From Kipferlia bialata (lineage: Eukaryota): a stretch of 34,145 bases of DNA. The first letter of the stretch is position 1, and each line of letters starts with the position of its first letter. Below the pieces are notes generated by a model, which was not told the DNA's origin, searched no databases, and was given only the letters and a program-made list of their open reading frames with translations. Shown piece after piece: positions 207 to 26,821 of this stretch. Position numbers and translations under genes: made by a program. The stretch lies in NCBI GenBank assembly GCA_003568945.1, contig BDIP01000070.1:1-34145 (forward strand), given 5' to 3'.

Positions 207-1799
207 GCTGACCTCCCCACATCATGCTCCAGCATGTCTGCCACCAAGGAGGGAGACACAGTGCACCTCACAGGTATTGGTATATCTGTATGTATAAGTG
301 TGCATATATATGCATATATACATATATTCATATGCAATTATGTGGGTATATACACTACTTAACTCAGGTGTTGTAACCTCTGGCGACCGTGTAACTAGGT
401 TCTCTCTCACGAAGGGTGCATGGACGCAGGAGGCCCTGCCTTACAAGGTATTATACATATATATACAAAGTGCACATGGTTTGATGTTAATGTTAATTCA
501 GTATGTTATGTATAATATGAATACTCTTTACGCATATATATATATATATCATATATATATATATATATCATATATGAATACTCTTTACGCATATATATAT
601 ATATATATATCATTATACGCACATATATATATATATCATAATGTATATAATGTATATATATACCCAATATGCCGTTAATGTACTTTTGTCTCTATGGGTA
701 CATTTCCACATACACGGCTGCCGTATACACGGAGTTCTGAGAGATAGAGCGGTGACATATGTATATTAATTATAAGTAGACTTTACTACATTTATTACTA
801 TTAAAATTTCTATATTCTTATGCTCTTGAACCCTTTCTTCTCACCTCTAGGCCCCCCACGTGACCTCTCTCTCTCTCTCCACTGGCACTCAGATACTGGT
901 AGGAAAGCTAGAGAGAGTGGCTGTGCCTAGCCGGGGAAGGAGAGTTCCAGGTATGGACTAAGACTTGTATTCATATTTATGTATACGGGATAATATTATT
1001 ATAGTGAAGGAGAGTTCGCGTTGCTACTGCAGCTCCAGGTATGGACTAAGACTTGTGTTCATATTAACGTATACGTGATATTAGAGTGCTTCTTTTTCAT
1101 CAATGTCCCGAAACGCAACTATCGCTAGTTTTCCATAATATTATTGATACTATTAGTATGGCCCTCGTAGAATCATTCATATTGTATTGTATGAATATGC
1201 TCTGCCTCATTATTGTTGTTGTGAATATGACACACCTCTCCTGATTTACACCATAGCTGCTGCCGCTGACCAGGGAGCTACTGGATTCGGTGCTGCCGCC
1301 GCCGCTACAGGTATATACATCTCTCCCTCTCTTATTAGTTAAACCAAGCTGCTCCCGTCGCTACAATACCACTCTCTGTCTCTGCATCGGACCATCCCTA
1401 TACTCTTTGTCCCAACCTTACTATATACTGCACTGCTCTATTCTATTTGTATACACTATATCAATTTACTGTGATATACTGACAATAGGCTTTGGAGCTG
1501 GCGTGCTCTCTCTCTCTCACACACATATTCTATCTATACATATATTTATTGTCTTCCTCAGCCTCTAACTATAGGCTTTGGAGCTGCCGCTGCCAAGCCC
1601 GGGGCCCCAGGTACGTGGATTGGTGTATATAGATAGAAATAGTATACCGACAGATAGATAGTTCGCGCTATCCCCCTACATTACACGTTGTGTTTACAGC
1701 ATCCCATACCTGATGTACTATCACACACCTTACCAATTAGCTGCCCCCGGTGCAAGAGGATTCGGAGGATTCGGTGCTGCCGGAACAGGTACACCTCAT

Positions 1800-1831
<32 letters not shown>

Positions 1832-1991
1832 GGACCGAGACTCGGTAGCTAAGTAGGACACCTCTGACTCCTGATTAACACTTTAGCTGCTGCCCCTGCC
1901 CCTGCCCCTGCCCCTGCCCCTGCCGGTGCGTTCGGTGGTTTCGGTGCCGCCCCAGCTGCTGCTGCTCCTGCAGGTATCTCTCCCTCTCTCC

Positions 1992-2023
<32 letters not shown>

Positions 2024-2574
2024 TATTATTATTATATACATTCTATCATCTTCTATCATTCATGTTTTGATCATGTTCTTATGGTTGTGTTTTACTCAAT
2101 TAGTGTCCCTCATGTAAAGCTGCTGCTCCTGCGTTTGGAGCTGCCCCAGCTGCCGCTGCTCCAGGTATCATTATCTCTCTCTCTCTCTCTTAAGTGATGT
2201 ATTCTCTCTGACATCAGTAGTTCTATAGTATCTATCATTAACGCTTGACACTATATCCTTCAGTGAGTAATACTATATTGGTTTCGTTCAAGTGCACATT
2301 CCTCATCCATGTCTTCTGTCGTTTCTCTTTTCTCTCACCTCACGGGGGCCCAACCTACCGTTACTGCTGCATGTATCTCAGTGAATCATTACTTCTGTCG
2401 TATGTACTATATCTCTCACTTTCAGCCTGGGGCGCCAAGCCTGCCGCTACTCCTAATGCTGCTCCAGCTACAACAGGTATATTATTCTAGTCTACACATC
2501 CCTCGTATTGTAATATCTTGTGTGTAGTATTACACTGCTTAATCGAAGTTGTACATCGTAACCATAGTTGTATG

Positions 2575-2610
<36 letters not shown>

Positions 2611-5600
2611 ACTGTAATTTTATCCTCACTCTCAGGTTTTGGTGCCGCTGCTGCACCAGCTGCCACAGGTGCATTCCATTACTATATCAATTAGTCAATA
2701 TATACTATACTGGTTTCGTTCGAGAACACGTTTCTTCACCACGTCTTTTGTCTTACTATCTTCTCTTATCTCAGTCAGGGGTGCCAAACCAGCCGCTCCC
2801 GCTGCTCCAGGTATACTTTATACAAGAGCAGTACTAACTGGAGAGCTAGAATAACATTGTAAGCTATTTCACTAGTATATTGAGTCTTCTTCCAATCTGT
2901 TTGAGACTCAGAGCTTTACTACATAATCCTTCCTGAGTTGTTGTAATTACCTATCATTAGTCATATGCAATGATTGGTATATACACAATGATCCTCACCC
3001 TCAGCTTGGGGTGCCGTAGCACCAGCTCCAGCTGCCACAGGTATACTATATCACTATATACATACAACCTCTTTCCAGCTATATACGTCTCCACTATTCT
3101 GCCGCGTTGTTGACGGGATACCATATCATTACGCGATACCACATCATTACGCGATACCATATCATTACCGTATGTGAGTATGTGCGTGTATAAATCTTAC
3201 TCTCAGCTTGGGGTGCCAAACCTGCCGCTCCCGCTGCTCCAGCTACCACCGGTATACTATTATACTCTACACATATATCGTATTGTAATATTTTGCGTCC
3301 GGTTTTTAACCGCTTAGTCGAAGTCGTCCCATAGTTGTATATGTATGCGTGCTCTTATTATCCTCACTCTCAGGTTTTGGTGCCGCTGCCGCAGCACCAG
3401 CTCCAGCTACCTCAGGTACCCTTATTCACTATACACAGCGTCCAGACCAATATAGATTTCCTCGTTTCCGAAGTAACATATTATCACATTAGCATGTGAA
3501 GTGTGTGTTGTTAGAGTATACATACATGATTCTCACTGTTAGCATGGGGCGCCAAGCCTGCCCCTTGGGCTCCCGCTTCTCCTTTCGCCAATACAGGTAA
3601 GCTCTTGACATACCTGCACGTATACTAATGGCTCTCGGTCATTCAATGTCTCAATCACTATCGTTGATTGAGCCAAATGGTATTAGCTTCCGACTATTCT
3701 GAGGACAATTTTTGCAGCCCGCATACTATGATTTGTTGCTCCTGTGCACACTCCCTCAATACCATTACTAGCCAGCTTCTGATATACCGTCGGCTGACTA
3801 TAGATATCAATGAGTCTCTCTTACTCACAAGATGTATATCAGTCTAATCCTAAATCCATACATCCATACTTCCTACTAAGACTGTCTAAGTATACGTATT
3901 TCTTTTACGTTTGACTATGATTCATTGTATGTGAATGACTCTAAGGGTTTGGTGCAGCCATAGCGGCACCTGCACCTGCCTATATTATTGACTGAAGTAT
4001 GTGTATATGGTAGTATACATAGTATACCTCACCATCAGCTTGGGGCGCCAAGCCTGCGGTTGCTGCAGCTCCAGCTACCTCAGGTACACTATATCACTCT
4101 TCACAGCATCCAGACCAATATTCATTTTCCTCCTTTCCGACTTAACGTATTATCATATTTAGCATGAAGTGTATTATATTTGAATATACATGCATGATTC
4201 TCACTGTTAGCATGGGGCGTCAAGCCTGCCGCTTCTCCTAAAGCTGCTCCAGCTACCACAGGTATAGTACTCTACTCGACACATCCTTCTAATTGTAATA
4301 TTGTATGTGCAGTATTCTAGCGCTTAGTCGAAGTCCATATGAAGTATATATCAATGTGTCTCTATTACTCACAATGTGTAAAGCGATCTACTCCTAAATA
4401 CATACATACGCTACCAACTAAGAAAACATACTTCTCTTACTTACGAATGACAATGAATGTGACTGTATTTGACTCCAAGGGTTTGGTGCAGCCATAGCGG
4501 CACCTGCACCATCCTCTACTAAGAAGGACACATACACCGACACCACAGAGGATGCCAGTGAGGCAGAGAGTGACACGCCAGTGGAGGACTCAGGTACCTA
4601 TATCTTCATATACTATATGTACTACACTTCTACTTCCTATGTAGTGTGTCAGTATCAGTATTATCATTATAGTTTCTCATCCCACAGGTGACGAGTCGGG
4701 CAAGGAACCAGCCGCCTTCAACTTCGGAGGTATAAGTCATCAATATGATCTCTATAATCTATCCATATATCCAACATGTACATTGGGCGTGATTCTCTTC
4801 AACTTCACAGGTGCACCTCTCGGATACTTTTACATGTTTGACCTTGATAGTGGGACGTATAAAGGTTGATTCTCTCTCATTTTTACTCAGAATAGGTTTC
4901 AAAGTGACTGGGGAGAGTGTGCTGGTACTACCTGCAGGCAAGAAGGCATGGACACCAACCAGGTAACGTGTGTCTATATGTGTGTCCCCATACAAATAGC
5001 ATCTGTACAAATAGTTATATCCATTCTCTCATTTCAAGGCGCCTCCCTGTCCACGTTGGCCCTGCCTCCTCATGTCTTCTGAACCCATACACGTTCATAG
5101 TGGTAGGTATCCAACGTACATATATATACCAGGCATATATACTCTAACTCCTCCAAACATATATAACGTAGAGACTACCATATTTGAGCACAATTGTATA
5201 TATCACACAATCGGCCATATCCATACTGAATGTATGATTACTTTGATATACACACACATCTATACTATCGACCTCTAGGCACCGACCACACTGTTATGGG
5301 TATATCCACTAAGGAGAGACAGAGAGTGCAGGCAGTCAAGGCAGCAGCGGTGGCAGAGAGAGAGAGAGACGAGCTGCTCTCCCTCTTCAAGGACCTGGCA
5401 CCTTCAGCTGACATCCCCTCTCTCTCCCCTGGGTTGCCATGGATAGCACCGGTCAAGGCAGCTCTATCAGAGGTAAATTGTGAACAAATAGAGATTATCC
5501 TTGCAGTGAGTTAATTTCACATCTCTCAAGAATACTCTGACCCCAAGGTTGCCATTCTCAAGGCGGCTAGTGGTCCCTGCCCTGAGTTTCTGTCCTTCAC

Positions 5601-8549
5601 TCCCTCTGACTCCGTTGCCCTGCAGTCTCTGATAGAGGAGGCAGAGGCATTTGACATGGCATCACTCGAGCCCCACATTGAGAGACTATCCAGGTAGATA
5701 TACATATATACGTACATATACATGCTTGTGTTGATGAGTGACGATGGTGAGGCATTTGACATGGCATCACTCGAGCCCCACATCGAGCGTCTGTCCAGGT
5801 AAAGAGTCTATATGTAGACATACACGTTTGTATATGCATCTATTGGAGTTGGTATACCCACACCTAATGCCCTTTGTGACTAAGTGGCGAAAGAAGCAAT
5901 ATGCTGGTGATGTCAGGTATCTACCCGTGGCAAAGAGGTTCGCCCCTAGGCTAGAGGCCCTCTCGAAGTTCCTAAAGGAGCACCCGGAGAGTGAGGTATA
6001 TCTGACATAGTTAGTATATATATATATATATTTATGTCATTTTGTGCGACTACGAGTGTCCGTGTGTGGCTATGTGGCCATAAGAACCTTAAAAACTGGC
6101 ATGTATCTTGTGATGGTGCTTCCAGTCCACTGACTCTCTCTCCCCCTCTAAAGATGTATGTATATTTCATTTGTGTCTGCATTCATGTCTCTCACATCAC
6201 CTTGTCTCTGGTGACGGTGAGTCTCTCTCTTTCTCTCTCTCTCTCTCCCTATTAATGTATATAGTCTATTATCTATCCTCAGCTTGTCTCTGGTGACTGT
6301 GAGTCTCTACTTCTTACCACTATCTATTTACATATATATTAGTAGTAATTGTATAAACATTCATGTATCTCACTCCAGCTTGTCTCAGGTGACTGTAAGT
6401 CTCTTCTGGAGACACTCACAGACCAGTTCAGTGCATTCAAGGTATGGTGCATTTGCAAAGGACCAATATATGGATAGTTTGTGTTGATGTGGCGCGTACT
6501 GTCTTCATATATGTGATGTACTCACAGGTCAGTTCAGTGCATTCAAGGTATGGTGCAATTATGATAACTATTCATTAGTATATATTTGTCAGAGGTAATT
6601 GTGACATCGTGCAATATACACTATATTAACAATTATATGAATTCTTAGACTTACCCATCAGGCCGACCTTGAGACTGTCACCGGTCTGGACTTTGACCCC
6701 CAAGAATCACTCGAAAAGATGCACTCTGCTGCTAAGCTACTCGACTCAATCAGTAGGTATAGAACTATGCGTATTCTTGTATGTACTATCTATCTATCTA
6801 TCTATTTTCCTATATTTCAGAGGTATGAGAGGACTGTGTGCATACATATATACTCAGATTGTGGTGTGTATAACCATGTACTGATATTTCTGATGTATAC
6901 GTATGTCCATATGGAGAGTTCACTTATGACTTAGGACCCGTGTCATCCCCCTCCCCCAGAACACACTGGCCCTGACCCTGGCCCACCAGAGAATGTACTT
7001 CCAGGTATAGAACACAGTAGTATTCAGGATGTTTACGTGAGAATGACTTCTCGGAGACAACTCCCAGGTATTGTGTGTATCACTATAGAGGACACAGTAA
7101 AACCTTTGCAATATACACACAACTGGTCTCATGCAGTTTTTACTATCAGTTTCACAGTCCGGTACAAGTAGTCTAACTCAGGTCAAGGGATTCAACGGCG
7201 GCGTTGCGACACTGTTCGGAGTGGCTGGACCAGTCATAGACAGCCAGGTATGGCGTACATTTATATACATATATGGTTATACATATATGGGTATGGAGTA
7301 TCACATATGTATATATCTCACACTCAGCCTGACAGTGAGGCATGTGTGTACATGCACATACATTTGTGGATATTTAGTATCATGTATGCATATATATATA
7401 TCATCGCAGCCTGCCATTGAGGTTCCTGAGTAGTATTCTGTCACTCATTCATATATACGTATGTGGTAGTAAAGTCTACAGTACATATATATCTCTCTAA
7501 CCCTCAGCCGGCCATTGCGGCATGCATGCAAGGACTGGAGGGTGTGATGACACCTGACACACAGGAGTGTGACTGGGTAACTGAGCAGGCAGAAAAGGTA
7601 TATAGAATATTTAACTAATTTCATATCCAATTATTCATATTCAGCAGGCAGAGAAGGTATATAGTATACATATCTCTACCTAATATCTACCTATTCCATT
7701 ATACTAGTATATTAGTGTATTTATATAGACTCAGGGTGACTGAGCAGGCAGAGAAGGTGTGTGTACATGTGTTGATACATGATATTGTTCATATATGAAT
7801 AGAGCTCTGCTGGACTCATAAGTTTCCAATGTCTAACCGATGTATGATATTTCTTATGTGTCTAATCCCAGCTCCTGGAGGCCCTTGCCCTTCTGGCACC
7901 CAGGCAGGCTGAGGCCAGGACACTGCTCGCTGAGGTATTCATGGTAGTGATATCATCGCTATAGTACCTTTCTCAATAATATATGTACTATTACCATACA
8001 GCAAAACGCTTAGTGTACTGTAATGCCATACACAGGCATCGGCACACTGTTGGAGTTCACAGTACAATGTGATATCTCCCTCCTAACTCCAGTGCTGTGT
8101 CATCAAGAATGTATCCGAGGATGGGGACATTGAGATCTAGATGCCTATATAATATGTGTATATATAGTGTACAACCCCCTACTAACTCTAGTTCACTGCC
8201 ATCAACACAGTGCCCGAGGATGGCGACATTGAGTATGCAGCATATGAGGTGACACGGGTGGAGACACTGCTCAAGAACCCAAGGTAGAATCATATATTAC
8301 ATTGGTCATATGTCAATCTCTCACCCTTAGACAGTCTGCCGAGGCCCATCTCAGGCCCATCTCTCTGAATCACTGCTTGGAATTCAAGTATCCTTAGCAG
8401 AATAGCATATAGTATAGTGTATATGTACAATGTATCTCACAGACAGGCTGTCCGCCCAGCAGAAGGCCCTTCTGTCTGATGAGCTGTTGGTCAACAGGCA
8501 GGCACTGCTGGACATGGAGAGAAGTCAGGTATACGGATGTGTCTCTATG

Positions 8550-8584
<35 letters not shown>

Positions 8585-9439
8585 CTCCCTGTGTATATAT
8601 TGAGTTGTTGGTCAACACACAGGCACTGCTCGATATGGAGAGAAGCCAGGTATATGCATGCATATATGTCTATATATATGTCAGCAATGTTATGTTGGTT
8701 TATGTCCTTGACTGCCAGGCTGACTTCACCCAGTACTATATGTATAGTGTCACATGTACCAGGACTCGTGTGTAGATATATATGCATGGGATCTATCTAT
8801 ATGTATTCATATATGATCCTGTATGATATATACACTGGCGTCTCACTGCCAGGCTGACTTCACCCGTCTCAGTGAGAAGCTGACACCCTTCAGGGAGTTC
8901 CCTGAGGTATTGGTGTTCTAAGAGCCCTCATATACATGCAAGTTACCTTTATATACTCATATGGCTGTGTACTACCACAGGTAGTGACAGCTATTCACAA
9001 GACAGAGCATACTATCACTATTGTATATATAGACAATTAACTCACTCGCATATGACTGTATTCTAACCACAGGTTGTGACAGCACTTGACAAGACAGACA
9101 CTATCTGTATACAATCATTACTGCATACTTTAAATATACACTCGCTTATGACTGTATTCTAACCACAGGTTGTAGCAGCACTTGACAAGACAGAGCCTGA
9201 GACAGAGGGTGACGCAGTGGTGACACCTGAGCAGGTCAACGGCATGACAGGTAAATAGTTATATTTGGCCTTAACTCATACTTGTGAGGAGTCAAGTCTA
9301 TAATAATCATAAATGTGCATAACATAGTTTCTTGTATTATTCGACCATAGTAGAAGTACTAGGAATAGTGTTGCTGACGATAGGCATGATGGTGAAGGGA
9401 GAGAGGACTCCAGAGGCAGAGATATGTGAAGTTGCTTGA
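207..9439 (+). CDS. Multi-exon gene (5' end outside window): kelch-like beta-propeller blades + Ala/Pro-rich FG/WG-repeat tract + acidic linker + helical C-terminal region; possibly nucleoporin-like
   Basis: Hand-spliced GT-AG exons keep one frame. 207-273, 368-447 and 851-950 give ADLPTSCSSMSATKEGDTVHLTGVVTSGDRVTRFSLTKGAWTQEALPYKAPHVTSLSLSTGTQILVG. Repeat exons run 1257-4729. 4896-4962 and 5039-5106 give GFKVTGESVLVLPAGKKAWTPTRRLPVHVGPASSCLLNPYTFIVVG. Further exons at 5279-5472, 5548-5693, 5917-5995 and onward lead to a last exon ending ...EAEICEVA-TGA at 9437-9439. The span includes introns, and the product call is inference. Confidence 0.7.
1257..4729 (+). repeat. Array of about 16 symmetric phase 1-1 mini-exons, most encoding one FG or WG repeat unit
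   Basis: Exons 1257-1310, 1575-1610 (GFGAAAAKPGAP), 1741-1788 (AAPGARGFGGFGAAGT), 1887-1973, 2120-2164, 2426-2476 (AWGAKPAATPNAAPATT), 2636-2668, 2775-2810, 3005-3040, 3207-3251, 3374-3415, 3543-3596, 4039-4083, 4211-4261, 4480-4593 and 4688-4729. All lengths are multiples of 3 and all are bounded by AG/GT. Confidence 0.85.
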
Positions 9440-9725
9440 ATGCCTGAAGATGTATGATCCTGGGTTGTGGTACCAATAGAGAGAGATATTCTGGACCTGG
9501 ATAGATCCATGCAAGAGTCCATAGGATCATCACACTTTTTCATATTTACGATCGCTTCAAGTCACACAAGAAAAACAATCAACCCGTCTGGTCTATTCAC
9601 TCCCGGCACGATAAATATATATGTAACAGTGAGTATATCAACTCACACACACAATGTTGGGTGTAAAGAAACAAAACAGGGACCCAACACAACTGACACA
9701 AACACCTCTCTCTCTCTCTCTCTCT

Positions 9726-10802
9726 CTAGTAGAATGATGGCTTGACCTGGTAGGGCTTCTTGGCACTCTTCTTGGCAGCACCCTGGTGGTGAGAACAAAA
9801 ATGAAATAACTATGCATCTTCTACAAACACATATATGTATAGAGTAGATACCTTCTTCTTGCCCTTCTTGTTCTTGGGCCTGACAAAGTACTGGACAGCA
9901 TATANNNNNNNNNNNNNNNNNNNNNNNNNNNNNNNNNNNNNNNNNNNNNNNNNNNNNNNNNNNNNNNNNNNNNNNNNNNNNNNNNNNNNNNNNNNNNNNN
10001 NNNNNNNATTACATATACATTATTTATAAGACACAAACCTTCTTCTTGCCCTTCTTGTTCTTAGGTCTGACAAAGTACTGGGCGGCATTGTGCTTGGCAT
10101 CGGCAATCTCACTGGAGTTAGACCCTTCTTAGACAATACACATATGTGTGTGGGAATACTATATACATACAGAGATATATGTGTGTGAACATACCCGCTC
10201 TTCCTCATTGTCCACTCTCTGCTCGCTCTCTGTATATTGATCTATCTTTTTGTATATATATCACGAAGCACATCTAGATATTCGGATAATAATTTTGTTA
10301 ACACTAATCATACCCGCTCTTCCTGCGTGTCCACTCCCTGCTCCTGTCATCTGTCAGCAACAGCTCGCCAAACATGTCCTAAGGAGTGAGAAGAACAGTA
10401 AATATGAATATAATTGTACCAATACAATTGTATCAATATACAATAGTGTAAATTGATCAATATACACACCTTGGACTGCTCCTTCTTAGTCTTCCTCTGG
10501 TGGTATCTGTCGGCAGACACCTGGGGGTGAGTAACACTCATGTACTCTAGAGTGAATATATATCAAACACAATGGTGGTAGGATATTGCATATACACCAC
10601 AGTACACTCACGTTGTATGTGCCAAACACTCCCCGCTGTGGGAGGTTCTTCCAGTCAGACTTCTTGTAGTGTCTGGGGTTAAGGTATACATATAGAGAGA
10701 GAGAAAGAGAGAAAGAGAGAGAGAGAGAGGGAGAGAGGGAAGTTCTTCCAGTCAGTCTTCTAGTAGTGCCTGGGGGTAGATACTGAGAGAGATGTGGGGG
10801 GG

Positions 10803-10835
<33 letters not shown>

Positions 10836-12200
10836 TTACCTCGCTGGGTCAATGTATGTCCTCAGGGCCAGCATCTGGAGCTCTCTCTGGGGGTCAGGGG
10901 AGGACACACAGAGATATGTGTATAGAGTACACTGGATAAACTTGATACTCAATACAAGGATGATTCATATATCCCAATCTATATACACAGCTTAGTGTCT
11001 GTCTGGCACACTATCCCCCCCCCCCCTCCCCCTCCCTCCATATATAGAAATGTACTCTCTCTATATACCATCTATCTATATACCTTCGTCTTGTCTGTCT
11101 GATCCAGACTGGGGCACTGACTCCACATGCCTGTCTCTCTCTCTCTATGTATATTATCGCTCTCTCTCGCTCTATGTATATAATTACTAAATATCTCTGA
11201 ATATATACCTTCGTCTTGTCTGTCTGATCCAGACTGGGGCACTGGCTCTACATGCCTCTCTCTCTATCTACATATGTATATATACTCCCTATACATCTAT
11301 GTATATATGTATACATATATACCTTCGTCTTGTCTGTCTGGTCCAGACTGGGGCACTGACTCCACTTGGCTATCCTCTTCTGCCTCTCCTCGGCCTCCCT
11401 AGAGACAGGGGCGGCATTGACATCTAAGGTGAGATATGTACAGTCATATATATATTGAAGGAGAGGGGGAGAGAGAGAGAGAGAGAGTCTCTCCTCTGTC
11501 TCCCTAGAGACAGGGGCGGCATTCACGTCTAGAGGTAAGAGAGGGAGAGATACATAGAGGGGAGAGCGATAGAGAGCGAGAGAGAGGTCTATCCCTCGAG
11601 AGAGGGGAGGCATTGACGTCTAAGGTGAGATGAATTCACACACACATACATATATATATGTGGGTGTATATATGTATATATAGAGAGAGACATGGGCTAC
11701 AATGACATCTAAGGTGAGATGAATAAAGAAAGAAAGAGAGAGAGAGCCACCCATGGAGACAGGAGTCATATTGACATCTGGGTGTCAATAGGGAGAAGAG
11801 AGTTGAAATAGGTATGGCAGAGAGAAGAGACATAAACATCCGGCTGGGGGTTGACATCAAGAAACACATATTGCAGAGAGATGAGAGGAGGGAGGGGGGG
11901 GGGGGTATACATAGGATAGTGCTGAACTATATACTCACATACCTGTGCCCATTGGGAGAGCCTTCTCCAGTGCATATCTGGCCTATAGTATAGAATGGCA
12001 AGAGTAGAGTACAATATAGTGTAGTAGAGTATAGTATACTAATTATAATATATATATATATATATGTACCTGTCCCCATAGGCAATGCCTTCTCCAGCGC
12101 CTGTCTGGCCTCCTCAGACAGTACCCTGGCCTTGGTGGACTCATCTGCCTCCCCCTCACTGTCACTCTCCACATAGTCCTCAGGCTTCACATCGAAGTAG
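9726..12200 (-). CDS. FCF2: Fcf2-domain pre-rRNA processing protein (FCF2/DNTTIP2 family), first exon missing
   Basis: Eight phase-compatible exons: 12200-12070, 11423-11323, 10886-10840, 10672-10612, 10520-10470, 10378-10314, 10111-10039, 9782-9726 (TAG). Spliced product: ...KWSQCPSLDQTDKTKRELQMLALRTYIDPARHYKKSDWKNLPQRGVFGTYNVSADRYHQRKTKKEQSKDMFGELLLTDDRSREWTRRKSGEIADAK...KKGKKK...FY*. This fits the Fcf2 pattern as I recall it: W..P......K.dL..L..R..lDP.RhYKK....lP.....GT......y..R..KKe......ELL. Confidence 0.88.
9905..10007. other. Assembly gap (N run) within an echo-containing intron; further gaps at 20300-20338 and 32628-32639
   Basis: N runs seen directly. All three abut echo copies. 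Confidence 0.98.
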
Positions 12201-12250
12201 CTGGGGTAAGAGGAATATACATAGGATATGTGGATAGAAAGAGTGACTGT

Positions 12251-12295
12251 GGGGAGAGGGAGGGGGGGGGGTGGGGGGGGGGGGGGGGGGGGGGG
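12251..12295. other. Poly-G tract between two divergent, apparently 5'-truncated genes
   Basis: About 45 nt of almost pure G; flanking exons at 12200 (-) and 12355 (+) both begin at splice acceptors in phase 2. Confidence 0.8.
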
Positions 12296-12354
12296 ATGTT
12301 AATACAAGAGATTATAACTTTCTCAACATATGTATAACCTCTGTCTCACTGTAG

Positions 12355-15300
12355 GTTCTCCACCGTGCTTGTGCTGCCTAGTGCCAGTGAGGTCTATGAC
12401 GCACAGGCCAAGGTATACATCCGTATCCTTTGAGACATATCATGTTACCTGTATGCTCTCTGAATATTCGGATTTCGCTTACCCCTCAGGACAGACAGGC
12501 CTCTGCCACCAACGAATTGATTTGAATCGTCTTGTACTATAGTATTTTCATTAATGCACTCCTGGATCATGCGTCATGGACTATCTATCTATCAATCTAT
12601 CTATATGTCTAACCATCAGGACAGACAGGCCTCTGCCACCAACACAGCTGAGGGAGGACTGCTCACGCTGCTCAAGGGTATGTGTAGTATTTATAACACG
12701 TAGAGACATACAATGTGTGTGTTTTGTATTTATATACACTTAGGGAGGTCGGCTCACACTGCTCAACGGTACAGGTCATACTCAGAGCATTAGTCTTGGA
12801 TTTTGAATGAACGAACAGTCATATTCTGTAAACTCATAGGGATAATTAGTAACTAATTTCTGACGTCAGACCGTATTGTGCGTGTCTCCACTGTTGTTGC
12901 CCCCCCTAGACGTCTACCCATATCCAACATGTTTGAGATGGAGAGGCACAAGGAGACACCCAGGCAGAAGCTGGAGAAGGCCTTTTCTAAGGTAGACTTG
13001 TATATTGTAAATAGAACATATACTCCAGTATTGCATCACCATCAGAATCTAGAGACTCTATACCATTGATATATGTGTTCATTGTTATATATGTTCTCTC
13101 TCATCTTCAGACTGAGAAGCGCCTTCTGAAGAGGCAGCGTGAGTGCCGGAAGGCACTGAAGAGACTGGGACACGGTGAGTGATTGTATTATGATATATAC
13201 CCACATTACCTGCTAGCACTACAAGGTAACGCGTACTCCGTGTATTTTCCGTTGTTCATATATTCCTAACGTCTTTCTTGCATTATCAATGCCCTCACCC
13301 GTGTTGTATATGGCATATGTGTACACATTATGTATCTCTCACCCTCAGGCAAGGAGGACGACAAGGCCAGGCGCAGTGAGGAGGCAAAGTCAAGGCACAT
13401 TAAGGTATACATATATACATGTATATACTTGAGCCTATGGAATGTTGTACACATTGTGAGGCTAAGACAAGGCACATCAAGGTGTACTTCTCACGTTGAG
13501 ATAATTTCTTATCCTAATATATACATATATATTCCATATAACCTCCAGGCCGAGCTGATGGCCAACCAGCAGCAGTTCGACAAGGACAAGGCAGCACTCA
13601 AGAAGGTACATATAAATACCGCATATGTCGAATTATATATGTATCAGCACATTCATTGTCTAATATCAAATCAACTATCATATATATTACTGTTCGACAA
13701 GAACAAGGTACCAATGAAACAGAATAACAGGGTACTTATTGTGTCTATGGCCGTCAAGAATGATGTGCCCTTTCTATCACAGTATGTCACGTGTATCATA
13801 TGTTTGTGTTGAACCTTACTCTCTACCTTCCCTCTCTATCTTACCCCCAGCCCGAGGTGGACCCTGTTGACAGGGATGCTGGGAATGTACTCGCACTCTA
13901 CAGCACAGCAAAGACAAAGCCTAGGTATGATATATTTATATGTATATATGTTTACATATACGTTAATGTATGTGTACTTGCACTCTACAGCACAGCCAAG
14001 ACAACGCCGAGGTATATATATATACATATATATATGAATTCATATATCAGTGCATATATCAGTGTGATGTTACTCTACAGCACAGCTAAGACAAAACCTA
14101 GGTATGCGTATAGTAGTGTACATTCACTTGCTTAATAGTGATAATGAGTACATATCTGTACTCGCACTCTACAGCACAGCAAAGACAAAGCCTAGGTACA
14201 TCTTTAACGCAGCGGCTTTGTATAATACGTAGTTGGTGTATGCTCTTACTAGATTGCGTCTGTTTGTGGCCAGATCCAATGGTACAAACAATTGTTATGT
14301 GATCATCATTGACTTCTTCAGCAATCCTATTTCTCATTTGTCCTTACTCCCAGGTGTCTGTTTGTGGCCAGGGCCAATGGGACCAAGTGCTTTGCTGCAG
14401 TGACAGACCTGCCAAAGGTACTAATATATGTATTTTCCTATATATATATGAAAGAAGACATCAGACATGGTCGTCTCATGCTTTCACTTTTCCTGATATT
14501 TGTACAACTGTTTACACTATTTGTGTCATGATTATTCTGTATTCAGTGATTTTACAGAGTTTTACACCCACTAACCCTAGCACGAGAGGGATGCCCTTGC
14601 GAAGCACTCCAAGACAGCAGCAGAGGGCAAGACTAACAGGTATATTTATCGATGTATTTTTAACTATATTATACTATAGATATAGTATCATACTATATAT
14701 TGCACTATGGTTATCTCCTATGAGACCCCCATGATGCCATGTGTCACTGTACCTCTTTCTTTTAACTAATAGTAATATACTAATAGTAATATATGTATAA
14801 ATATGTTCAATATATATATATATATATATATGTTAGCCTTACCCCTAGACTTGTCACCTCCTATGAGACCCCCATGATGCCCTATGTCACTGCAACATAT
14901 AATATCATATATATATATATATATATATGTTAAACTCATTCATAGGCTTGTGACCTCCTACGAGACCCCGATGATGCCCTATGTGACCAAGGAGCCCACC
15001 CTTGGCATGGCATCTCCATACAGAGACGTGGTGGTGCAGATCACACCCAGGTAAGAATTCATAACTATATTTAGTATATATATATAATATATATGTAGTT
15101 GTGCCCAAACCCTTGACATGGCATCTCCATACAGAGACGTGGTCGTACAAGTGACACCCAGGTATGTGGTAGTATATATATATATATATACTATAGCACA
15201 TACATATAGTGTACACAGGTGTATATTGATCTCTGCTGGGTGTGTCTAACCCCAGTGGTGTGCATGTGATTGAGGCCAAGCCCCTTGGCAGGGTGGCCAA

Positions 15301-18009: not shown

Positions 18010-21000
18010 CTGGCCAAGGCACAGGCTGAGGGAGAGGAGGGCAAGAAGGCAGAGGTATGAGTGCAGTACCAGCATTTGAACATATATATCTTTTGCACCA
18101 ATACCAGCCCGAGCCCCTGTTTGGGGTGTACAGTGCCACCCTGCACTACTCTAGTTCACTGTATATATAGAAACTCTATTATTGCATATATATATATATA
18201 TATAAGTATGTTCTAATGTATCAGCCCGAGCCCCTGTTTGGGGTGTACAGTGCCACCCTGCACTGCTTCCCACCAGCACTCACAGCACCCGACCTGGAGA
18301 TGAACAGGTGTGTATGTGTGTGTGTAGTAATGTATAGAGAAATGTATATATATACACATGTGATATAGATCTGAGTGCATATATGTGTATTATCGAGTAT
18401 TCATTCACTCACTATCAGGCTACACTCCATCTACATGCCAGTGGCCCTGACTTCTGGCGAGCAGATGCTGTACAGACTCAACCTGACAAGGGGGGAGAGA
18501 GCGGGAGAGGGAGAGGGAGAGGCCTGTCTCACCCTGAGGAGGGTGTCCAACATACCATCCCCAGTCACACTGAGGTATGTAGTGATATATGTATATATTC
18601 ATTATTCCACAGAGGTACCATTGGTACATTTCTATATAGATGTATCTCACACATCTCACACATTTTTCACAAACACTCTGGTATCCCATGCGCGATACCT
18701 TCATGTACTGAATATACCACTACATGTAGTTGTGTGAATGTCTATACTAACCCCAGACCCACCCGGCCTGTCCTCGATATGTATGACATTATAGTACCAT
18801 TGCGACTATATAGTATATGATATATATATATAGCACTCATTGTATAAATTCATTCTACTAACCCCAGACCCACCCGCCCTGTCATTGATTTGTATGGTAA
18901 TAGTGTCTAAATATCAGTATCGAGTATACTTCCACATGGATACTGACCCCCCAGACCCACCCGCCCTGTCATTGATCTCTATGGCCTTGAGATTGTCAGC
19001 AGGAAGGGGGAGGGCAAGATGGCAGGTACGACTTGTACGATATTGGTATATATTATTATATGACTTGTACGATATTAGTAGATTTTTATATATTATTATT
19101 ACATTATTATTGTATACAAGGTGGAGGACACTACAATAATGTCTCTACGTGAATATGATTATTTTGTGAGCAGGAAGGGGGAGGGCAAGACTACAGGTAT
19201 GCAGTGTATATTGAGGTTGGATGACACTGTACATTCGTCTTATTCCAGACCGCTCCATCACCGACCGTGTTGGCATGTGTGTCTGGTCCACCCACCCATC
19301 CTATGCTGGGCCCATACAGCCCAGAGAGGCCAAGCCTGTGCACATACCTGTGCCTGGACAGATGGTGAGTGCATATATTCACGTATAGTTTGTATATGGT
19401 ACTATGTGCCAGGACAGGTGGTGTGTATGGTATATTTACTTGGAACGATGACTCATCTCTCTTTCTCTCTCTCTCTCTCTCTGATCCCAGGTTGTGGAGG
19501 AGGACCTCCTCCCACCTTCGGAGGTCTCTCCCTCTCTCTATCTATATATATATGTATATCTGTATTAATATATATATGTATATCCCTTAACCCAGGTTGT
19601 TGAGGAGGACCTCCCCCCTGCCCAGGCCTTTGACTTCTCCGGAGGATACCTTTGTATTGGAAAGGCATTTGCAGCAATCATGCCCAAGGTGGGGACATTA
19701 ATTAATATTATATATATATATATATTACATTGGATTTATATAATATATACAGTGAATAAGCATCCGAGGCCTCAATCATACCCAATTTGGGGAAATTCCA
19801 GGAATAGAAGTATATTTTTCATTTGTAATTTGCAGCAATGTACTATTACTATCAGTGGTATCTATTGTATAGAGCCACACCTCCTCTGCCGAGGCTGAAC
19901 CAACTGAGCACCCCCTACTGTATACACACATATACTAGTTTAATACACAGTATACTATATAATATACATATTCTTATATGTAGGGCCACACCTCCTCTGC
20001 CGAGGCTGACCCCACTGAGCACCCCCTAGCCTATATTTTTTACTAGTATATACAGTATTATAGTATATTATAGTAAATAGATATATATATTCTCATGTCC
20101 TAGGGCCACACCTCCTCTGCCGAGGCCGACCCCACTGAGCACCCATTACTATATATATACCAGTGTAGTCTATACAGTATATGTACTGTATATATATATA
20201 CTACATATTCTTATATGTAGGGCCACACCTCCTCTGCCGAGGCCGACCCCACTGAGCACCCATCACTATATATATACCAGTGTAGTCTATACAGTATACN
20301 NNNNNNNNNNNNNNNNNNNNNNNNNNNNNNNNNNNNNNAGTCTATACAGTATACTATATATATATATATTCTTATATGTAGGGACATACCTCCTCTGCCG
20401 AGGCTGACCCCACTGAGCACCCATTGCTATATATATACCAGTGTAGTCTATACAGTATATGTACTATATGTATATATATACTCATTAATAGGGTCACACC
20501 TCCTCTGCCGAGGCTGACCCCACTGAGCACCCATTACTATACACACACATATGCTAGTATAGTATATACTAGTATACTATATATATATACATATTCCTCA
20601 TACCTAGGGACATACCTCCTCTGCCGAGGCCGACCCCACTGAGCACCCCCTGTTGAAGAAGGCAATCCCAGGGTCACTGTTCCTACTCTCCAGTGCTGCC
20701 GCAGGTCTATATGTACATTATAGTAATGGTATACATATATTAATAGAGAGTGACAGAGAGAGATAGTAAGAGAGAGATAGTACCAGGGTCAATGTTCCTT
20801 CTATCCAGTGCTGCAGCAGGTACTGTAAATGTATAATATGTAATAATTGATGACAATAGTCAGTATTCATTTCGACCAACCCCAGGCGACATTGCTCCAG
20901 CTAGGGGCGCGAAGACAGGTAATTCATTGTCAACTCATGTATACATAACTACCAGTGTACTAATGCAACGTGTTCAATACTACTATTTCTATTAATTCAT

Positions 21001-24000
21001 CCTATCCACATAGTTCTGAGACATCCGTACTGACCCCATGTGCCTCCTACCTCCCCGTCAGCACCCTGCTAGCCCCCACCCTACTGGGAGAACCAGCTGT
21101 GTACAGGATAGGGAGACCCACATCACAGGTATTGTTCATCTATATATCCACCTATCCATCTATATATACACCTCGCTCTCTGATACTGATACTGAGACTG
21201 GTAGGGAGACCCACATCTCAGGTACTTCCCATTCCCTAATAACATGTCCCTAATATGTAACACCACATATATGCATATACTGAGTATACTGTAAGAGAGT
21301 GTTGATATCTAACCTCAGTCCAATGTCCCCATGGTCGACTGCCCCCCCATGACCTCTGTCACAGTGGCACATGGGTTTGGATCAAGGCTGATTAGCCCAG
21401 GGGCACTGCCAGGTATAGAGTATATGTATGCATTTGCGCACATATTGGGAACATATATTCTTGTATGGAAACACCAAGGAGCCGTTTGATTATAGGTGTA
21501 TATACAAGTATGGTTGTCATTTGTATCCACTAGTCCGTAGTCCTCTCACAACCAGTCATGTTTGCTGGCAATGGCTCCTCCAAGGATGCCCTGGACGTAG
21601 TGGCCACCCTGGACGTTGGCACAGTGGTCAAGAGCAGCAAGGACAAAGATGGTATGTGGTTTATATATGAGTCCCTTCACTATAACACCGTACATGTAGA
21701 TATGTGTTACAGAGACTATATATGTATATATGATATATGTATACTAATGGTAGGCCGCAACGTCACCTTGGTATGGTATATGTATATAGTATGTATACTA
21801 ATTGTAGGCCGCAACCTCCCTGTGGGTGTGTACAAGTGCATGGACACCTACCCCATATACATATATACATATATACAGTGTCTACAATATATTATAGATT
21901 AGACAATGTACTAATGTACTAATGGTAGGTCGTAATCTCCCTGTTGGTGTGTACAAGTGCATGGACACCTACCCCATATATATTGTAGAGATAATATATA
22001 TTGTAGAATTATATATACAGATAATACCGACACTGATAGCAGGACGCGATCTCCCTGTGGGTGTGTACAAGTGCATGGACACCTACCCCAGTGCCCTTGC
22101 CCTGTCCTCACCCGGTCCATGCATGGCACAGCACACTATAATGCTTCCGCCAGGTGTGTATTTATATATATATATATATATATATGAATATATCTTACTA
22201 TGTGTACATGTACTGCATTATGCTGCCACCAGGTGTGTGCTGTGATATCACATCACCCATTATATCATACCCTTTCTTGTCTCGCTATGTGTATACTATG
22301 TACTATATAATGTTCTCACCCCAGGTGTCTCTGCCAGGGCCATGGCCTATCACAAGTCAACTGACTCCATTCTGCTGGCTGCATACACCACTAGGTATGG
22401 ATAGTATATATACATATATATACATACATACATATATATGAATCTTATGTGACAAGTTATCCTGCTGGCTGCATACACCACGAGGTATTACGAATTTGTA
22501 TTATATACACATACGTATACAATAGTACTAGGAAGTATGATTGTATGCAGCATGGAGTGTTCAACCAAATTCTTTGTATTGACCATTGTATTCATAATCC
22601 CCATCTCACCCTGCAGGATGGAGGTCAGAGAGCCAAGGTCCATACATATACACATTTGTATATATATGTATAGCAATGTTAATATTGTCAACAGTGTACT
22701 GTATAGTGACATATGTATATGTATAAACACACATCTCACCCTGCAGGATGGAGGTCAGAGAGCCCAGGTCAACTGCCAAGGACAACACCAGAGCCGCAGA
22801 CGCCGCTAGGTACTACACTCATATATATATATGGCTAGGTACTATACTCAAATGTGTATATATATATATATATATAAATATAGTCTACATGTATAGTATT
22901 GCAAACAAGCTGAGAGCAGCAGACGCCGCTAGGTATGTTCTTAACGAGATGCATACACTATTCGTAAACTTTCGCTCCAAGTTTTCGTTGAAATTTCTCT
23001 GTCTTCCCTTTTGAATCGTTCTCAGTCCATCCCTGACCCTCTCTATTATTGGTTGTGAATTCATTCAAATCTCTCACCCCAGTCAGGCTGCCGAGGTTGC
23101 ACAGGAGGCCAGGAATATGGGAATGTAAGTGCATTGGCAGTCACTCCATATTTATACGTAGAGAGATCCTTTCCTGCGCAATGGTTAATTCATTAGCTAT
23201 TCTATGACTGTAATTCATCTATCTCATCAGACCTTCTCCCCTGATGCATATAGTTTTGCATGTATGTACGCGCGTGTGTGTGTGATATGTGTTCTTACCC
23301 CTTTGGGAGCCCTCCGAGGCCTTAGCCCGTATACCTATATATATTCGTGAAACAGCATATGTACACATATATATTCGTTCAATGTCTGTATGATAATAAT
23401 CTTACCCTTCAGGGAGCCCTCCGAGGCCCTTGCCCGTATGCCTATTGGTATATATATACACAAGTGAAAAACATTTTGAACTGAGTGTATATAATTGTTC
23501 TCAACCCTTAGGGAGCCCTCTGAGGCCTTAGCCCGTATACCTATATATATTCGTGTAACAACAAATATGTACACGTATATATGTATCGAATGTATGTATT
23601 ATATTAGCCTTACCCTTCAGGGAGCCCTCCGAGGCCCTGGCCCGTATGCCCAAGGTGGAGAGGCCACCCAGTCCACCCCTGCACAGGACAAAGTGAGTGA
23701 TAGCATGCTGTTGGCATAGATGTTGTATTGATTGAAGACCTGTTACAGTACACCCCCTCACCCCCAGTGCAGAGACATATCAATATCATATTCAGTATAC
23801 TAGAGTATATACTAAAGATAATACAGTACCTATAGTACCCCCTCACCCCCAGTGCCGAGAAGGAGTCAGACCCCGAGGCACTGCCCATGTATGCAAGGTG
23901 AGAACCCAGAAGTATACTATATACACTAATACTCTGTAGTGATAACTGTATATGTATATTGGTATATGTATATGTATATACAATTGGGAAGGAGTCAGAC

Positions 24001-25272
24001 CCCGAGGCACTGCCCATGTATGCAAGGTATGGATAATACACGTCATATGTATATATATACTATATATATACTCTAAATATACAGTCAGTTTACCTACTAT
24101 GTCTGTGTAATTATGAGGGAGACAGACCCCGAGGCGCTGTCCGTGTACTCGAGAGCATATGTGTATTGTACTATTACATGATTTGTATATATCCGGTTAT
24201 ACATGTTGCATCTTTGGTGTATGTCTCACCTTAGGGAGCAGCACCGCCTGATCCTGATCTCTGCCTCGACAGGAGAGGTCATGGACTCACACATGATGAG
24301 GTACTTTATATACTGGCATTATGTGTATAGTATGCTAGATAGTGTACACATGCTCTCTGCCTAACCTCCCTAGGGCTCATATTTCTTCCATCTCACCCTC
24401 AGGTCTGCCTATGGCGAGGAGGTCACGTGCATTGCCTCTGGCAATGTCAGAGCGGCATTCCCACAGAGACTGGGTACGATTAGTATACATATCATTGTTG
24501 ATACCCCTACACATATATACACATGTTCATAGATATCAGAGCGGCATTCCCACAGAGACTCGGTACGATGAAGTATCAGTGACTATCACTATGTATTGCT
24601 TGGATGGTGTATCCATCTCTCATCCCCCAGGTGCCCATTGGCGCCCTGCCGCTGACATGCTGGATGCATTTGGAAGGGTTGATAGGAGGTAAGAGTCAAT
24701 ATGGTATACTGCATAGCATGTATATTTACACACACACATATATACACAAATTCATATACGTGTATACATTATGTATATGTCCTATATATCATATGCCACT
24801 GACATGCTGGATGCAGTTGGAAGGGTCAACAGGAGGTATGGTATCACCAAGTTGTCAACATACACAACACTCTCTAGGATTGACCGTATTCACTTCTACA
24901 TGATTGAGTATTTAATAGTCTTTGTAGTATATGATCTTCATACTCCTAGGAACCGATCCGGCACTGAGGTCGATGGCCTCTATATTATATTGCTAACAGA
25001 TATGTACTATATATTGTACTCGCTTAGGAACCGTGCAGGCACTGAGGCCGGTGCCATGTTGAGACTATACTACATATATGTATATATATATATATATAAA
25101 TATATATATGTATTAGTACTATTATATACAATTATTATATACTGTTTTCTTACTCCTAGAAACCGAGCTGGCACTGAGGCCGGTGCCATGCTGAGACTGG
25201 CCTTCCTGGGTGGTAACAGACTGACAGACCAGTGGAAGGAGGTGCTGGTGGTAGGAACTGCATTGGTACAAG
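12355..25272 (+). CDS. CPSF1: CPSF160/Cft1-like (DDB1/SF3B3/CPSF1 superfamily) multi-propeller protein, partial; N-terminus and most of the C-terminal propeller not found
   Basis: About 35-40 spliced exons give motifs in the same order as I recall for CPSF160: YVTKEPTLGMASPYRDVVVQITP (about 14950-15050), LCVLLSTRNGSVLAYDLSD (16848-16955), IYMPVALTSGEQMLYRL (about 18420-18575), FDFSGGYLCIG (about 19595-19688), ARAMAYHKSTDSILLAAYTT (about 22325-22393), EQHRLILISASTGEVMDS (about 24235-24300), EEVTCIAS (about 24403-24472) and KEVLVVGTALVQG (25160-25272). Orthology versus DDB1/SF3B3 is not computed. Confidence 0.65.
13885..14200 (+). repeat. Exon 3' end + donor echoes (three copies after the complete exon)
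   Basis: ACTCTACAGCACAGCNAAGACAANNCCNAG|GTA ends the complete exon at 13924 and recurs ending near 14011, 14101 and 14195. Confidence 0.9.
19870..20650 (+). repeat. Tandem array (about 110-120 bp period) of acceptor + exon-5' echoes ending in the complete exon at 20608
   Basis: Core AG|GGCCACACCTCCTCTGCCGAGGCYGACCCCACTGAGCACCC at about 19872, 19984, 20104, 20221, 20382 and 20492, each running into TA-rich filler. Only the copy at 20608 continues to a donor (about 20704). An N-gap lies inside the array. Confidence 0.92.
23300..23660 (+). repeat. Acceptor + exon-5' echoes (three copies before the complete exon at 23621)
   Basis: GGAGCCCTCYGAGGCCYTNGCCCGTATRCC at about 23306, 23413, 23512 and 23621. 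Confidence 0.9.
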
Positions 25273-25530: not shown

Positions 25531-25972
25531 GGAGGCCCCCAGTAGTGGGTAGACAAACACTGGTCAGTACTGACACCTGTAGTGACTGGTAGTGACTGGT
25601 AGTGACTGGTAGTGACTAGTCAAGGACAGGGCAGACAGCACCCATTGGCCAGGTACTCTATATACATGTATACACCTATATACATGTATATTATGTATTA
25701 CAATACTTTCTCTCTCCTTCAATGTTTTCGTCACTGTATACACACACATATATATATATAAATACACACACACACACGCGCACACACACACACACACATA
25801 TATATATATACATGTATAGACACACATACGTCCTCACCCTCGCTCTTGCTGTGCTTTGTCTATATGTGTCATAGTCATACCACTCACCCAGGCCCTACCC
25901 CACTAGATGCACAGTTCATTGCACCACAAGACGGGCGGGGACAGAGAGAGAGAGGCACCCTCGAGGGGGAAG
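25531..25972 (+). CDS. Orphan exons of uncertain assignment (continuation of gene 3 or 5' part of gene 4)
   Basis: Candidate exons 25531-25548, 25620-25652 and about 25892-25972 can be joined as GRPPVVVKDRADSTHWPGPTPLDAQFIAPQDGRGQRERGTLEGE. The last exon has a CTCAC branch point + CCAG acceptor, a GTATGG donor and downstream echo copies. Its phase does not link cleanly to 26822. Confidence 0.4.
25582..25620. repeat. Short tandem repeat (AGTGACTGGT)x~4
   Basis: Direct reading at about 25581-25620. Confidence 0.85.
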
Positions 25973-26432: not shown

Positions 26433-26821
26433 GTAATTGTTTATATACATAAGAAGATACATAAACACTATATACTATATACATACTATATACATACTAT
26501 ATGTATGTGGAGTCAGAGTGGTATTGTCGATGAGTATATGTATATATGTATACACACCATGTATATGCTTCTGTGATGGCTTGTGGATGTATACTAAGAA
26601 TGACAGTGTGTATATGTACAGTAAGGTTATGTATACCCCTTTATTTCAGGATTGTAGAGTGGTGGTGTTTGTATATGTGTATGCATAGGTATATCTGTAT
26701 TCAGTATATATTTGTGTTCATGGTGGCCATTTGTGCCTCAAGTCTTCTCCCACCTTGTTCCGTGTGACATACGGTCTCTCATTGATATAGATAGTATATC
26801 TATACCTATTCTCACCCCCAG

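Follow-up and report, generated by a model that had tools for sequence, protein, structure and literature searches.

Introns of Kipferlia bialata carry partial copies of the ends of their neighboring exons, and we consider it probable (at roughly 0.55) that these copies, here called echoes, are snapshots of divergent, once-working alleles which recombination in a very diverse population placed beside the live exons, where they then decayed neutrally. The evidence comes from one 34-kb window, meaning the whole stretch of 34,145 nucleotides analyzed (contig BDIP01000070.1), in which 90 exons and 87 introns were curated.

Gene models in the window

Reading frames were taken from a predictor trained on the window itself, followed by manual curation; the predictor initially called many echoes as exons, and these were taken out by hand. 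The curated exon chains are those of gene A, which lies on the plus strand and extends to about 9430, of a minus-strand gene, and of gene C, which occupies the plus strand from 12355 onward. When individual exons of genes A and C were used as protein queries, nothing matched, and the frames of these two genes are therefore those of the predictor and the curation. The exon peptide of the minus-strand gene matched a single protein, KIPB_000581 of Kipferlia bialata, an Fcf2 rRNA-processing factor (FCF2; Pfam PF08698, E = 2.8e-15). Residues 5-198 of this protein are the translation of the curated FCF2 exon chain, and the exon frame used for the FCF2 echo comparison below agrees with the annotation; the annotated start, MLRN, probably results from a faulty prediction. 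KIPB_000581 is alone in its protein cluster.

At 12201-12355 the window contains a poly-G tract (about 12250-12295). The FCF2 RNA contig runs 17 letters beyond 12201 that the window does not contain, and upstream of 12869 the gene C RNA contig extends for 2366 letters, as compared to 116 exonic bases in the window. Since both RNA contigs disagree with the window there, a contig misjoin near 12250-12295 is likely, with trans-splicing at 12201-12355 a less likely alternative. Gene C is possibly two genes, as suggested by an acceptor followed by an in-phase stop at 26650-26657 (plus strand), after exon 25892-25972.

Gene C, whose chain has three phase breaks, supplies 36 of the 50 echo families described below. 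The exon chains checked against RNA are those of the other two genes; the RNA evidence spans 4700-14700 and, in gene C, ends at 12989. Three parts of the window were omitted from the echo counts: the repeat-exon region, with everything before 5279; the last exon, at 33811; and an exon-like stretch at 25531-25652 (plus strand) in which we found no open frame. The latter has AG and GT ends, is broken by four 10-bp repeats and has stops in all three frames, and the exon chain is in phase when it is left out. The repeat-exon region contains, at 1257-4600 (plus strand), whole-exon duplicates in series, some with duplicated introns, that code for GFGA/AWGAKPAA repeats, which we take from the motif to be nucleoporin-like. 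At 29414-29735 an intron holds a tandem array with a 14-bp unit, repeated about 23 times with divergence between the units.

Echoes lie beside their own exons with a fixed polarity

An ungapped, codon-blind, junction-anchored scan of the introns flanking curated exons (score 10) retrieved 78 echoes in 50 families, located in 42 of the 87 introns. Forty-one are 3' echoes, downstream of the exon whose end they copy, and 37 are 5' echoes, upstream of the exon whose head they copy; wrong polarity was seen in only 2 and 3 cases, and 0.6 echoes were expected by chance from unrelated introns. Lying beside their own exon, on the same strand and with forced polarity, the echoes are partial tandem duplications across the splice junction. 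Their median length is 32 nt and the inner spacing 108 nt, and their presence makes introns twice as long (median 260 vs 130 nt).

The splice dinucleotide is kept in most echoes (GT in 38/41 of the 3' echoes, AG in 31/37 of the 5' echoes), and up to six acceptors can be found upstream of one live exon. This overall retention of 69/78 agrees with the 0.87 predicted from a dead-branch load of 0.067, and departs from the 0.75 predicted from half the 4-fold divergence (p = 0.002). Similarity in the intron flank is clear for 5' echoes (p = 2e-9) and weak for 3' echoes (p = 0.02), in which the exon part is kept while the flank past the splice consensus is near random. One further 3' echo, at 931-950 vs 1003-1038 (plus strand), has a conserved intron flank; it contains 18 additional bases, in frame, that the predicted exon end lacks, and may stem from a longer earlier version or allele.

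The case that drew attention to these copies is in FCF2. Its live exon at 12070..12200 (minus strand; 43 codons, matching KIPB_000581) ends in LEKALPMGT at a phase-1 GT donor, and a 40-nt 3' echo of this end, with its own GT donor, is found by sequence comparison at 11943..11982 (minus strand). The two differ at 8 of 40 bases, 6 of them synonymous and 2 in a single replaced codon. An earlier note on this DNA had reported five substitutions that leave LEKALPMGT unchanged and one amino-acid difference, Q versus Y, further upstream; codon-by-codon comparison shows the first statement to be exact and the second to be the only replacement (CAG/TAT). The changes that it listed are right, yet among the synonymous pairs of the 13 codons compared (GCG/GCA, GCA/GCT, TTG/CTC, CCT/CCA and GGG/GGC, exon/echo) it had overlooked GCG/GCA. 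The probability of at least 6 synonymous changes out of 8 is 0.004 if only the dead copy changes and 0.048 if live and dead copies both do, for an example picked by hand. Because the live copy continues to gain synonymous changes after any duplication, the FCF2 echo by itself is modest, borderline evidence, and the claim rests on the pooled test given below. The FCF2 echo has a donor score of 12.5 and a weak upstream AG (3.2, as against a live 10th percentile of 4.6). We rejected its use as a true exon tail through a GC-AG intron, for which the donor score is -1.5 and the RNA has the live letters.

Other echoes span a range of decay. Four 5' echoes, each an AG with the head of the next FCF2 exon, lie at 11528, 11619, 11708 and 11777 (within 11489..11777, minus strand) and, over their first 30 nt, mismatch the exon at 3, 6, 10 and 9 positions; the outer ones are more decayed and carry many replacements. 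That next live exon (11323..11423, minus strand) is followed by two 3' echoes of its own, at 11260-11209 and 11135-11084 (within 11084..11260, minus strand). In gene A, a 3' echo at 5735..5798 (plus strand) of exon 5548-5693 has only synonymous differences over its last 17 codons, including AGA/CGT. A counter-example is the 5' echo at 10737..10769 (minus strand), whose scored codons show three non-synonymous changes, one of them a stop, but none that is synonymous.

Echo differences carry a coding signature

When the 78 echoes were pooled, differences fell at codon positions 1, 2 and 3 in a ratio of 67/46/167 (61/39/140 when each difference was counted once per family; chi-square p = 7e-16), and the pooled dN/dS was 0.22 (Nei-Gojobori, Jukes-Cantor). 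The excess of synonymous change for which the earlier note had argued thus stands in the pooled alignments. With families weighted equally, divergence is 0.067 at 0-fold and 0.243 at 4-fold sites, a ratio of 0.24 (bootstrap 95% 0.18-0.32); in the two RNA-checked genes the ratio is 0.25 (0.14-0.44). Removal of six exons of uncertain frame or border leaves it at 0.24, and wrong-frame controls gave 3.1 and 2.5. Without the four exons picked by eye (45 of the 50 families remaining) the ratio is 0.27 (CI 0.20-0.36).

The neutral value of 1 that the earlier note had assumed was wrong. Copies simulated through the same detector, with a mutation spectrum set by hand from the observed differences, gave a ratio of about 1.0 if only the dead copy changed, and of 0.52-0.63 if the live copy changed as well (lowest of 360 replicates, 0.29); a plain duplicate gives about 0.55, since the live exon alone contributes synonymous changes. 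The observed 0.24 lies well below this, and the time separating exon and echo was therefore mostly spent as working coding sequence. Codon usage was also examined: the more-used codon is the echo's in 46 of 104 synonymous differences, as compared to 20% predicted by dead-copy decay (p = 3e-8). At 2-fold sites, transitions (0.098) match those at 4-fold sites (0.101) and transversions (0.046) match those at 0-fold sites (0.045). Repeat-induced C>T mutation was rejected, as 4-fold differences show no transition excess. We found no gradient of more non-synonymous change away from the splice site, a comparison confounded by end-trimming, and no significant difference in the direction of GC/AT change between synonymous and non-synonymous codons (p = 0.20).

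Divergence has two layers

The divergence of the echoes is composed of two layers, of which one is constant and codon-respecting (~0.17-0.2 per 4-fold site) and the other variable and neutral-like (~0.07). Synonymous divergence is not overdispersed among the 78 echoes (chi-square 63.9, df 77), each of which offers few 4-fold sites; non-synonymous divergence is (chi-square 131, p = 1e-4), with no correlation between the two (rho 0.11). At 4-fold sites divergence is near-constant at about 0.24, both between echoes (28.1/110.7) and between echo and exon (67.6/278.4), and innermost and outermost echoes are alike (30/120 vs 30/117). At 0-fold sites, in contrast, innermost echoes differ at 14/421 and outermost at 35/406 (p = 0.002). 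This outward decay is seen within arrays only, and over all 78 echoes raw distance does not correlate with pS or pN. The non-synonymous changes look like neutral decay: their mean BLOSUM score is -0.43 vs -0.54 expected, and 5 of 70 are stops vs 3.6 expected.

In simulations, only a fixed prior live divergence combined with a variable dead time reproduced all statistics. When they arose, echoes already differed from their exons by some 0.2 at silent sites. The synonymous dispersion, taking one echo per family, is 0.85; a model of alleles at fixed depth gave 1.07 (P = 0.14) and plain duplication 1.55 (P = 0.005). Exponentially varying allele depth fails this test (0/200) and gamma-distributed depth is borderline (P = 0.05). 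The plain dead duplicate, with its age-scaled divergence and a ratio of 0.5 or more, is rejected by the ratio of 0.24 together with the lack of overdispersion in synonymous depth.

A history confined to one genome appears highly unlikely. The live role could have been swapped as arrays expanded and collapsed, or silent change in live exons could outpace mutation in the echoes. A live lineage lengthened 3-5 times indeed reproduces the ratio, and in 16 of 46 pairs it is the inner echo that has diverged more. A two-unit duplication (86% over 160 nt) is also present at 23285-23650 (plus strand), spanning two echoes and the head of the live exon, so that echo arrays also expand by multi-unit steps. 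However, both versions predict an age-scaled, overdispersed synonymous depth, which is rejected by a simulated dispersion of 1.80 (0/200 replicates), and intron flanks diverge faster than exons rather than slower.

Echoes are present in the DNA and skipped in the main transcript

Among the matches listed, eight contigs of a DNA sequencing run cover 4700-14186 in pieces with 0 differences and at a depth of 384-458, although this run may be the window's own source. Four separate contigs (6259-8535, 8602-9693, 11215-11454 and 12306-13915) traverse both exons and echoes without a difference, and that at 11215-11454 links exon 11423-11323 to most of its inner echo. The possibility that allelic reads were assembled in tandem, or that detection favored synonymous-looking copies, is in our view barely credible given these contigs; the detector is codon-blind, neutral simulations passed through it give a ratio near 1, and arrays of up to six copies, as well as echoes with stops, cannot be alleles of one diploid. 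In its favor are the short-read assembly with N gaps, the likely misjoin described above, the uncertain independence of the DNA run, and the lack of a contig bridging the FCF2 echo itself among the DNA matches listed.

Transcript evidence came from a run (X2) taken as RNA because it behaves as spliced RNA, although it is not on record as such; its depth in the bin 11714-12047 is 8.4. Its contigs have the live letters, with 0 others, at 5546-5690, 8190-8281, 11323-11425 and 12080-12201, thereby matching four exons that together have nine echoes and include those at 5548-5693 (up to 5690), 11323..11423 and 12070..12200 discussed above. Spacings of 143, 290 and 298 nt in the RNA records are exact sums of echo-free exon chains (arithmetic on coordinates). 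In the RNA contigs listed, a kind of evidence that cannot reveal minor forms, the echoes are thus skipped in the main transcript. Where several strong donors or several acceptors are on offer, the checked transcripts take the donor that comes first and the acceptor that comes last; this points to exon definition, in a protist whose introns are short. The spliceosome is reportedly reduced (87/174 proteins; PMC6679479), and how it selects the first donor and last acceptor among several strong sites is a question that these introns raise.

Direct protein selection, on echoes used in minor splice forms or on exon parts co-expressed until recently, is very unlikely as the source of the coding signature. 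Echo donors do score like live ones (9.9 vs 9.5), a fair opposite splice site occurs near 11/41 of the 3' echoes (acceptor) and 6/37 of the 5' echoes (donor), and the final 10 bases of the live FCF2 exon, with one diagnostic site (GGG/GGC), fall outside the RNA match, probably due to repeat masking beside a TA run. Against this stand the live letters and echo-free spacings just described, the stop codons inside 6 of the 78 echoes, and the in-register swap points, 0/35 of which have both splice sites at live strength. The strict polarity speaks against decayed mutually exclusive exons.

Origin of the echoes

The earlier note had left two readings side by side, snapshots of earlier exon versions or alleles, and continued coding constraint through exchange with the live exon. 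The former fits best, and in the specific form of alleles, given a synonymous depth that is not overdispersed and has no link to non-synonymous decay. Such a history might run as follows. Alleles in the population would differ by about 0.2 at silent sites, and their introns would be too divergent for pairing, leaving exons as the homology islands where exchange begins. An out-of-register crossover or conversion could then join one haplotype's exon end with another's echo, or a break could be repaired off the homologue; by either route the exon end of one allele would come to lie in the intron beside the live exon of another. A copy that had both of its splice sites would be included in the mRNA and selected out, so that only one-site copies of the right polarity would persist. 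The step of allele capture is proposed on the strength of the sequence comparisons; signs of exchange are seen in two 39-nt echoes identical to their exon but with dissimilar flanks, and in four-gamete site pairs, both described below. As a general statement about the species, that its introns form an archive of fossil alleles in which exon ends of other haplotypes are steadily deposited beside live exons, we regard it as an even bet.

The silent diversity required, near 0.2, would be among the highest known. Because exponentially varying depth fails the dispersion test, the fixed depth requires either very fast recombination or few deep lineages, and five of the 78 echoes, being identical to their exon, additionally need copying from the same allele. 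No report of sex in K. bialata appeared in the literature consulted for the mechanism. Two metagenome scans for a relative returned 592 and 595 pattern matches but no relative, and no captured allele was seen in these scans, in the FCF2 protein cluster or in the DNA run. Metamonads are described as lacking NHEJ and depending on homologous repair (PMC8516963).

The main rivals of the captured-allele reading are constraint driven by conversion and a past hybrid; all three derive the echoes from live sequence or exchange them with it. Ongoing constraint would mean that echoes are frequent donors of conversion to the live exon, like silent cassettes, and that damaged ones are selected against. Several observations point that way. 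Two of the identical echoes, the outermost of three 3' echoes of exon 13851-13924 (14157..14195, plus strand; 39/39) and a 3' echo of exon 23853-23897 (23988..24026, plus strand; 39/39), have intron flanks that are dissimilar or, past the GT in the former case, look unrelated to that of the live exon. The six-copy array of 5' echoes of exon 20608-20704 (19873..20532, plus strand, with an N gap), whose spacers are partly alignable whereas most other echoes have dissimilar spacers, holds 5 of 6 variable sites at third positions and one Gly site with three states; four-gamete patterns, the live exon included, were found in 2 of 6 informative site pairs, both in this array, although recurrent mutation may also produce them. 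Moreover, innermost echoes have a ratio of 0.11, and 26 of the 78 echoes have no non-synonymous change. Yet conversion erases synonymous differences too, and by arithmetic symmetric conversion gives a ratio near 0.5 or above; lower ratios need a bias from echo to exon and a population large enough to hold very diverse alleles anyway. Stops and radical changes moreover occur at neutral proportions. Of the earlier reading of continued constraint, the exchange part has indirect support from the identical echoes with dissimilar flanks and the four-gamete pairs; the constraint part is weakly supported, with the neutral-like non-synonymous spectrum and the echoes with stops against it. We consider this explanation unlikely.

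A single past hybridization, or a long asexual diploid phase, in which two or a few lineages ~0.2 apart at silent sites merged and template switches made echoes before heterozygosity was lost, would supply the fixed synonymous depth that fits best, and no heterozygous letters appear in the DNA run listing (no alternative letters over 10 kb, in contigs that drop variants). It is nevertheless quite unlikely: multi-echo families contain three-state sites (9 counts at 4-fold vs 4 at 0-fold sites), echoes are as distant from each other as from the exon where two haplotypes would give many identical pairs, and non-synonymous decay covers a wide age range.

If the echoes are captured alleles, a single genome would suffice to measure how diverse this protist is and how it recombines, although few isolates of it are known; its silent diversity (about 0.2) would follow, as would a dated record of how its introns grew. 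The species has about 125,000 introns, and one assembly would offer tens of thousands of such pairs of alleles. The echoes would also be evidence that genetic exchange takes place in a free-living fornicate, making sex there testable.

Comparison with known systems

The genome paper of K. bialata reports 124,912 introns (PMC5874029), and its main text contains 0 occurrences of 'duplicat' and 'heterozyg'. In titles and abstract starts of the literature, in a search that took in few subscription journals, we found no description of dense echoes with an allele-like signature.

Intron 7 of human F7 contains a 37-bp VNTR with silent 5' pseudo-sites (PMC1557585). The likeness is that tandem copies extend over an exon-intron border, the first donor being used and the downstream donors silent; unlike this single locus of near-identical units, echoes occur in 42/87 introns, on donor and acceptor sides, with dissimilar spacers and codon-respecting divergence. 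Introns can also be gained through tandem duplication of exonic proto-splice sites, as described in PMC2891723, where exon-like sequence likewise ends up inside an intron and the mRNA is unchanged; echoes, in contrast, copy an existing junction without creating a new intron, and such a gain predicts the live-plus-dead ratio of about 0.55 rather than 0.24. The regime needed by the captured-allele explanation exists in Schizophyllum commune, with a silent diversity of 0.20 and crossovers that favor exons, which act as homology islands (PMC4576712, PMC4209137); the crossovers there are allelic, between sequenced strains, and the abstracts mention no intronic copies of exon ends.

Several well-studied kinds of duplicated coding sequence differ from the echoes in other ways. 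Intron gain by internal duplication was reportedly discussed by Gao and Lynch in 2009. In tandem exon duplication with mutually exclusive exons, both copies can be under purifying selection; the echoes are partial, strictly polar copies, mostly with a single splice site, that the RNA contigs listed leave out. They are unlikely to be such exons, since an acceptor and donor of their own at live strength were not found (the opposite site being fair in the 11/41 and 6/37 cases given above). Whole-exon duplicates occur separately in the window, in the repeat region 1257-4600, and are distinct from echoes. Silent cassettes, such as Neisseria pilS, Borrelia vls and the chicken Ig pseudogenes, are unexpressed partial copies whose coding character is kept by exchange. 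Unlike these, which serve amino-acid change in surface and immune proteins, echoes copy housekeeping exons, differ from them silently, and include stops in their decay. Duplicated splice junctions are already known as single-locus oddities; what sets the present case apart is their presence in about half of the introns examined, together with a signature of purifying selection that is impossible for a dead duplicate.
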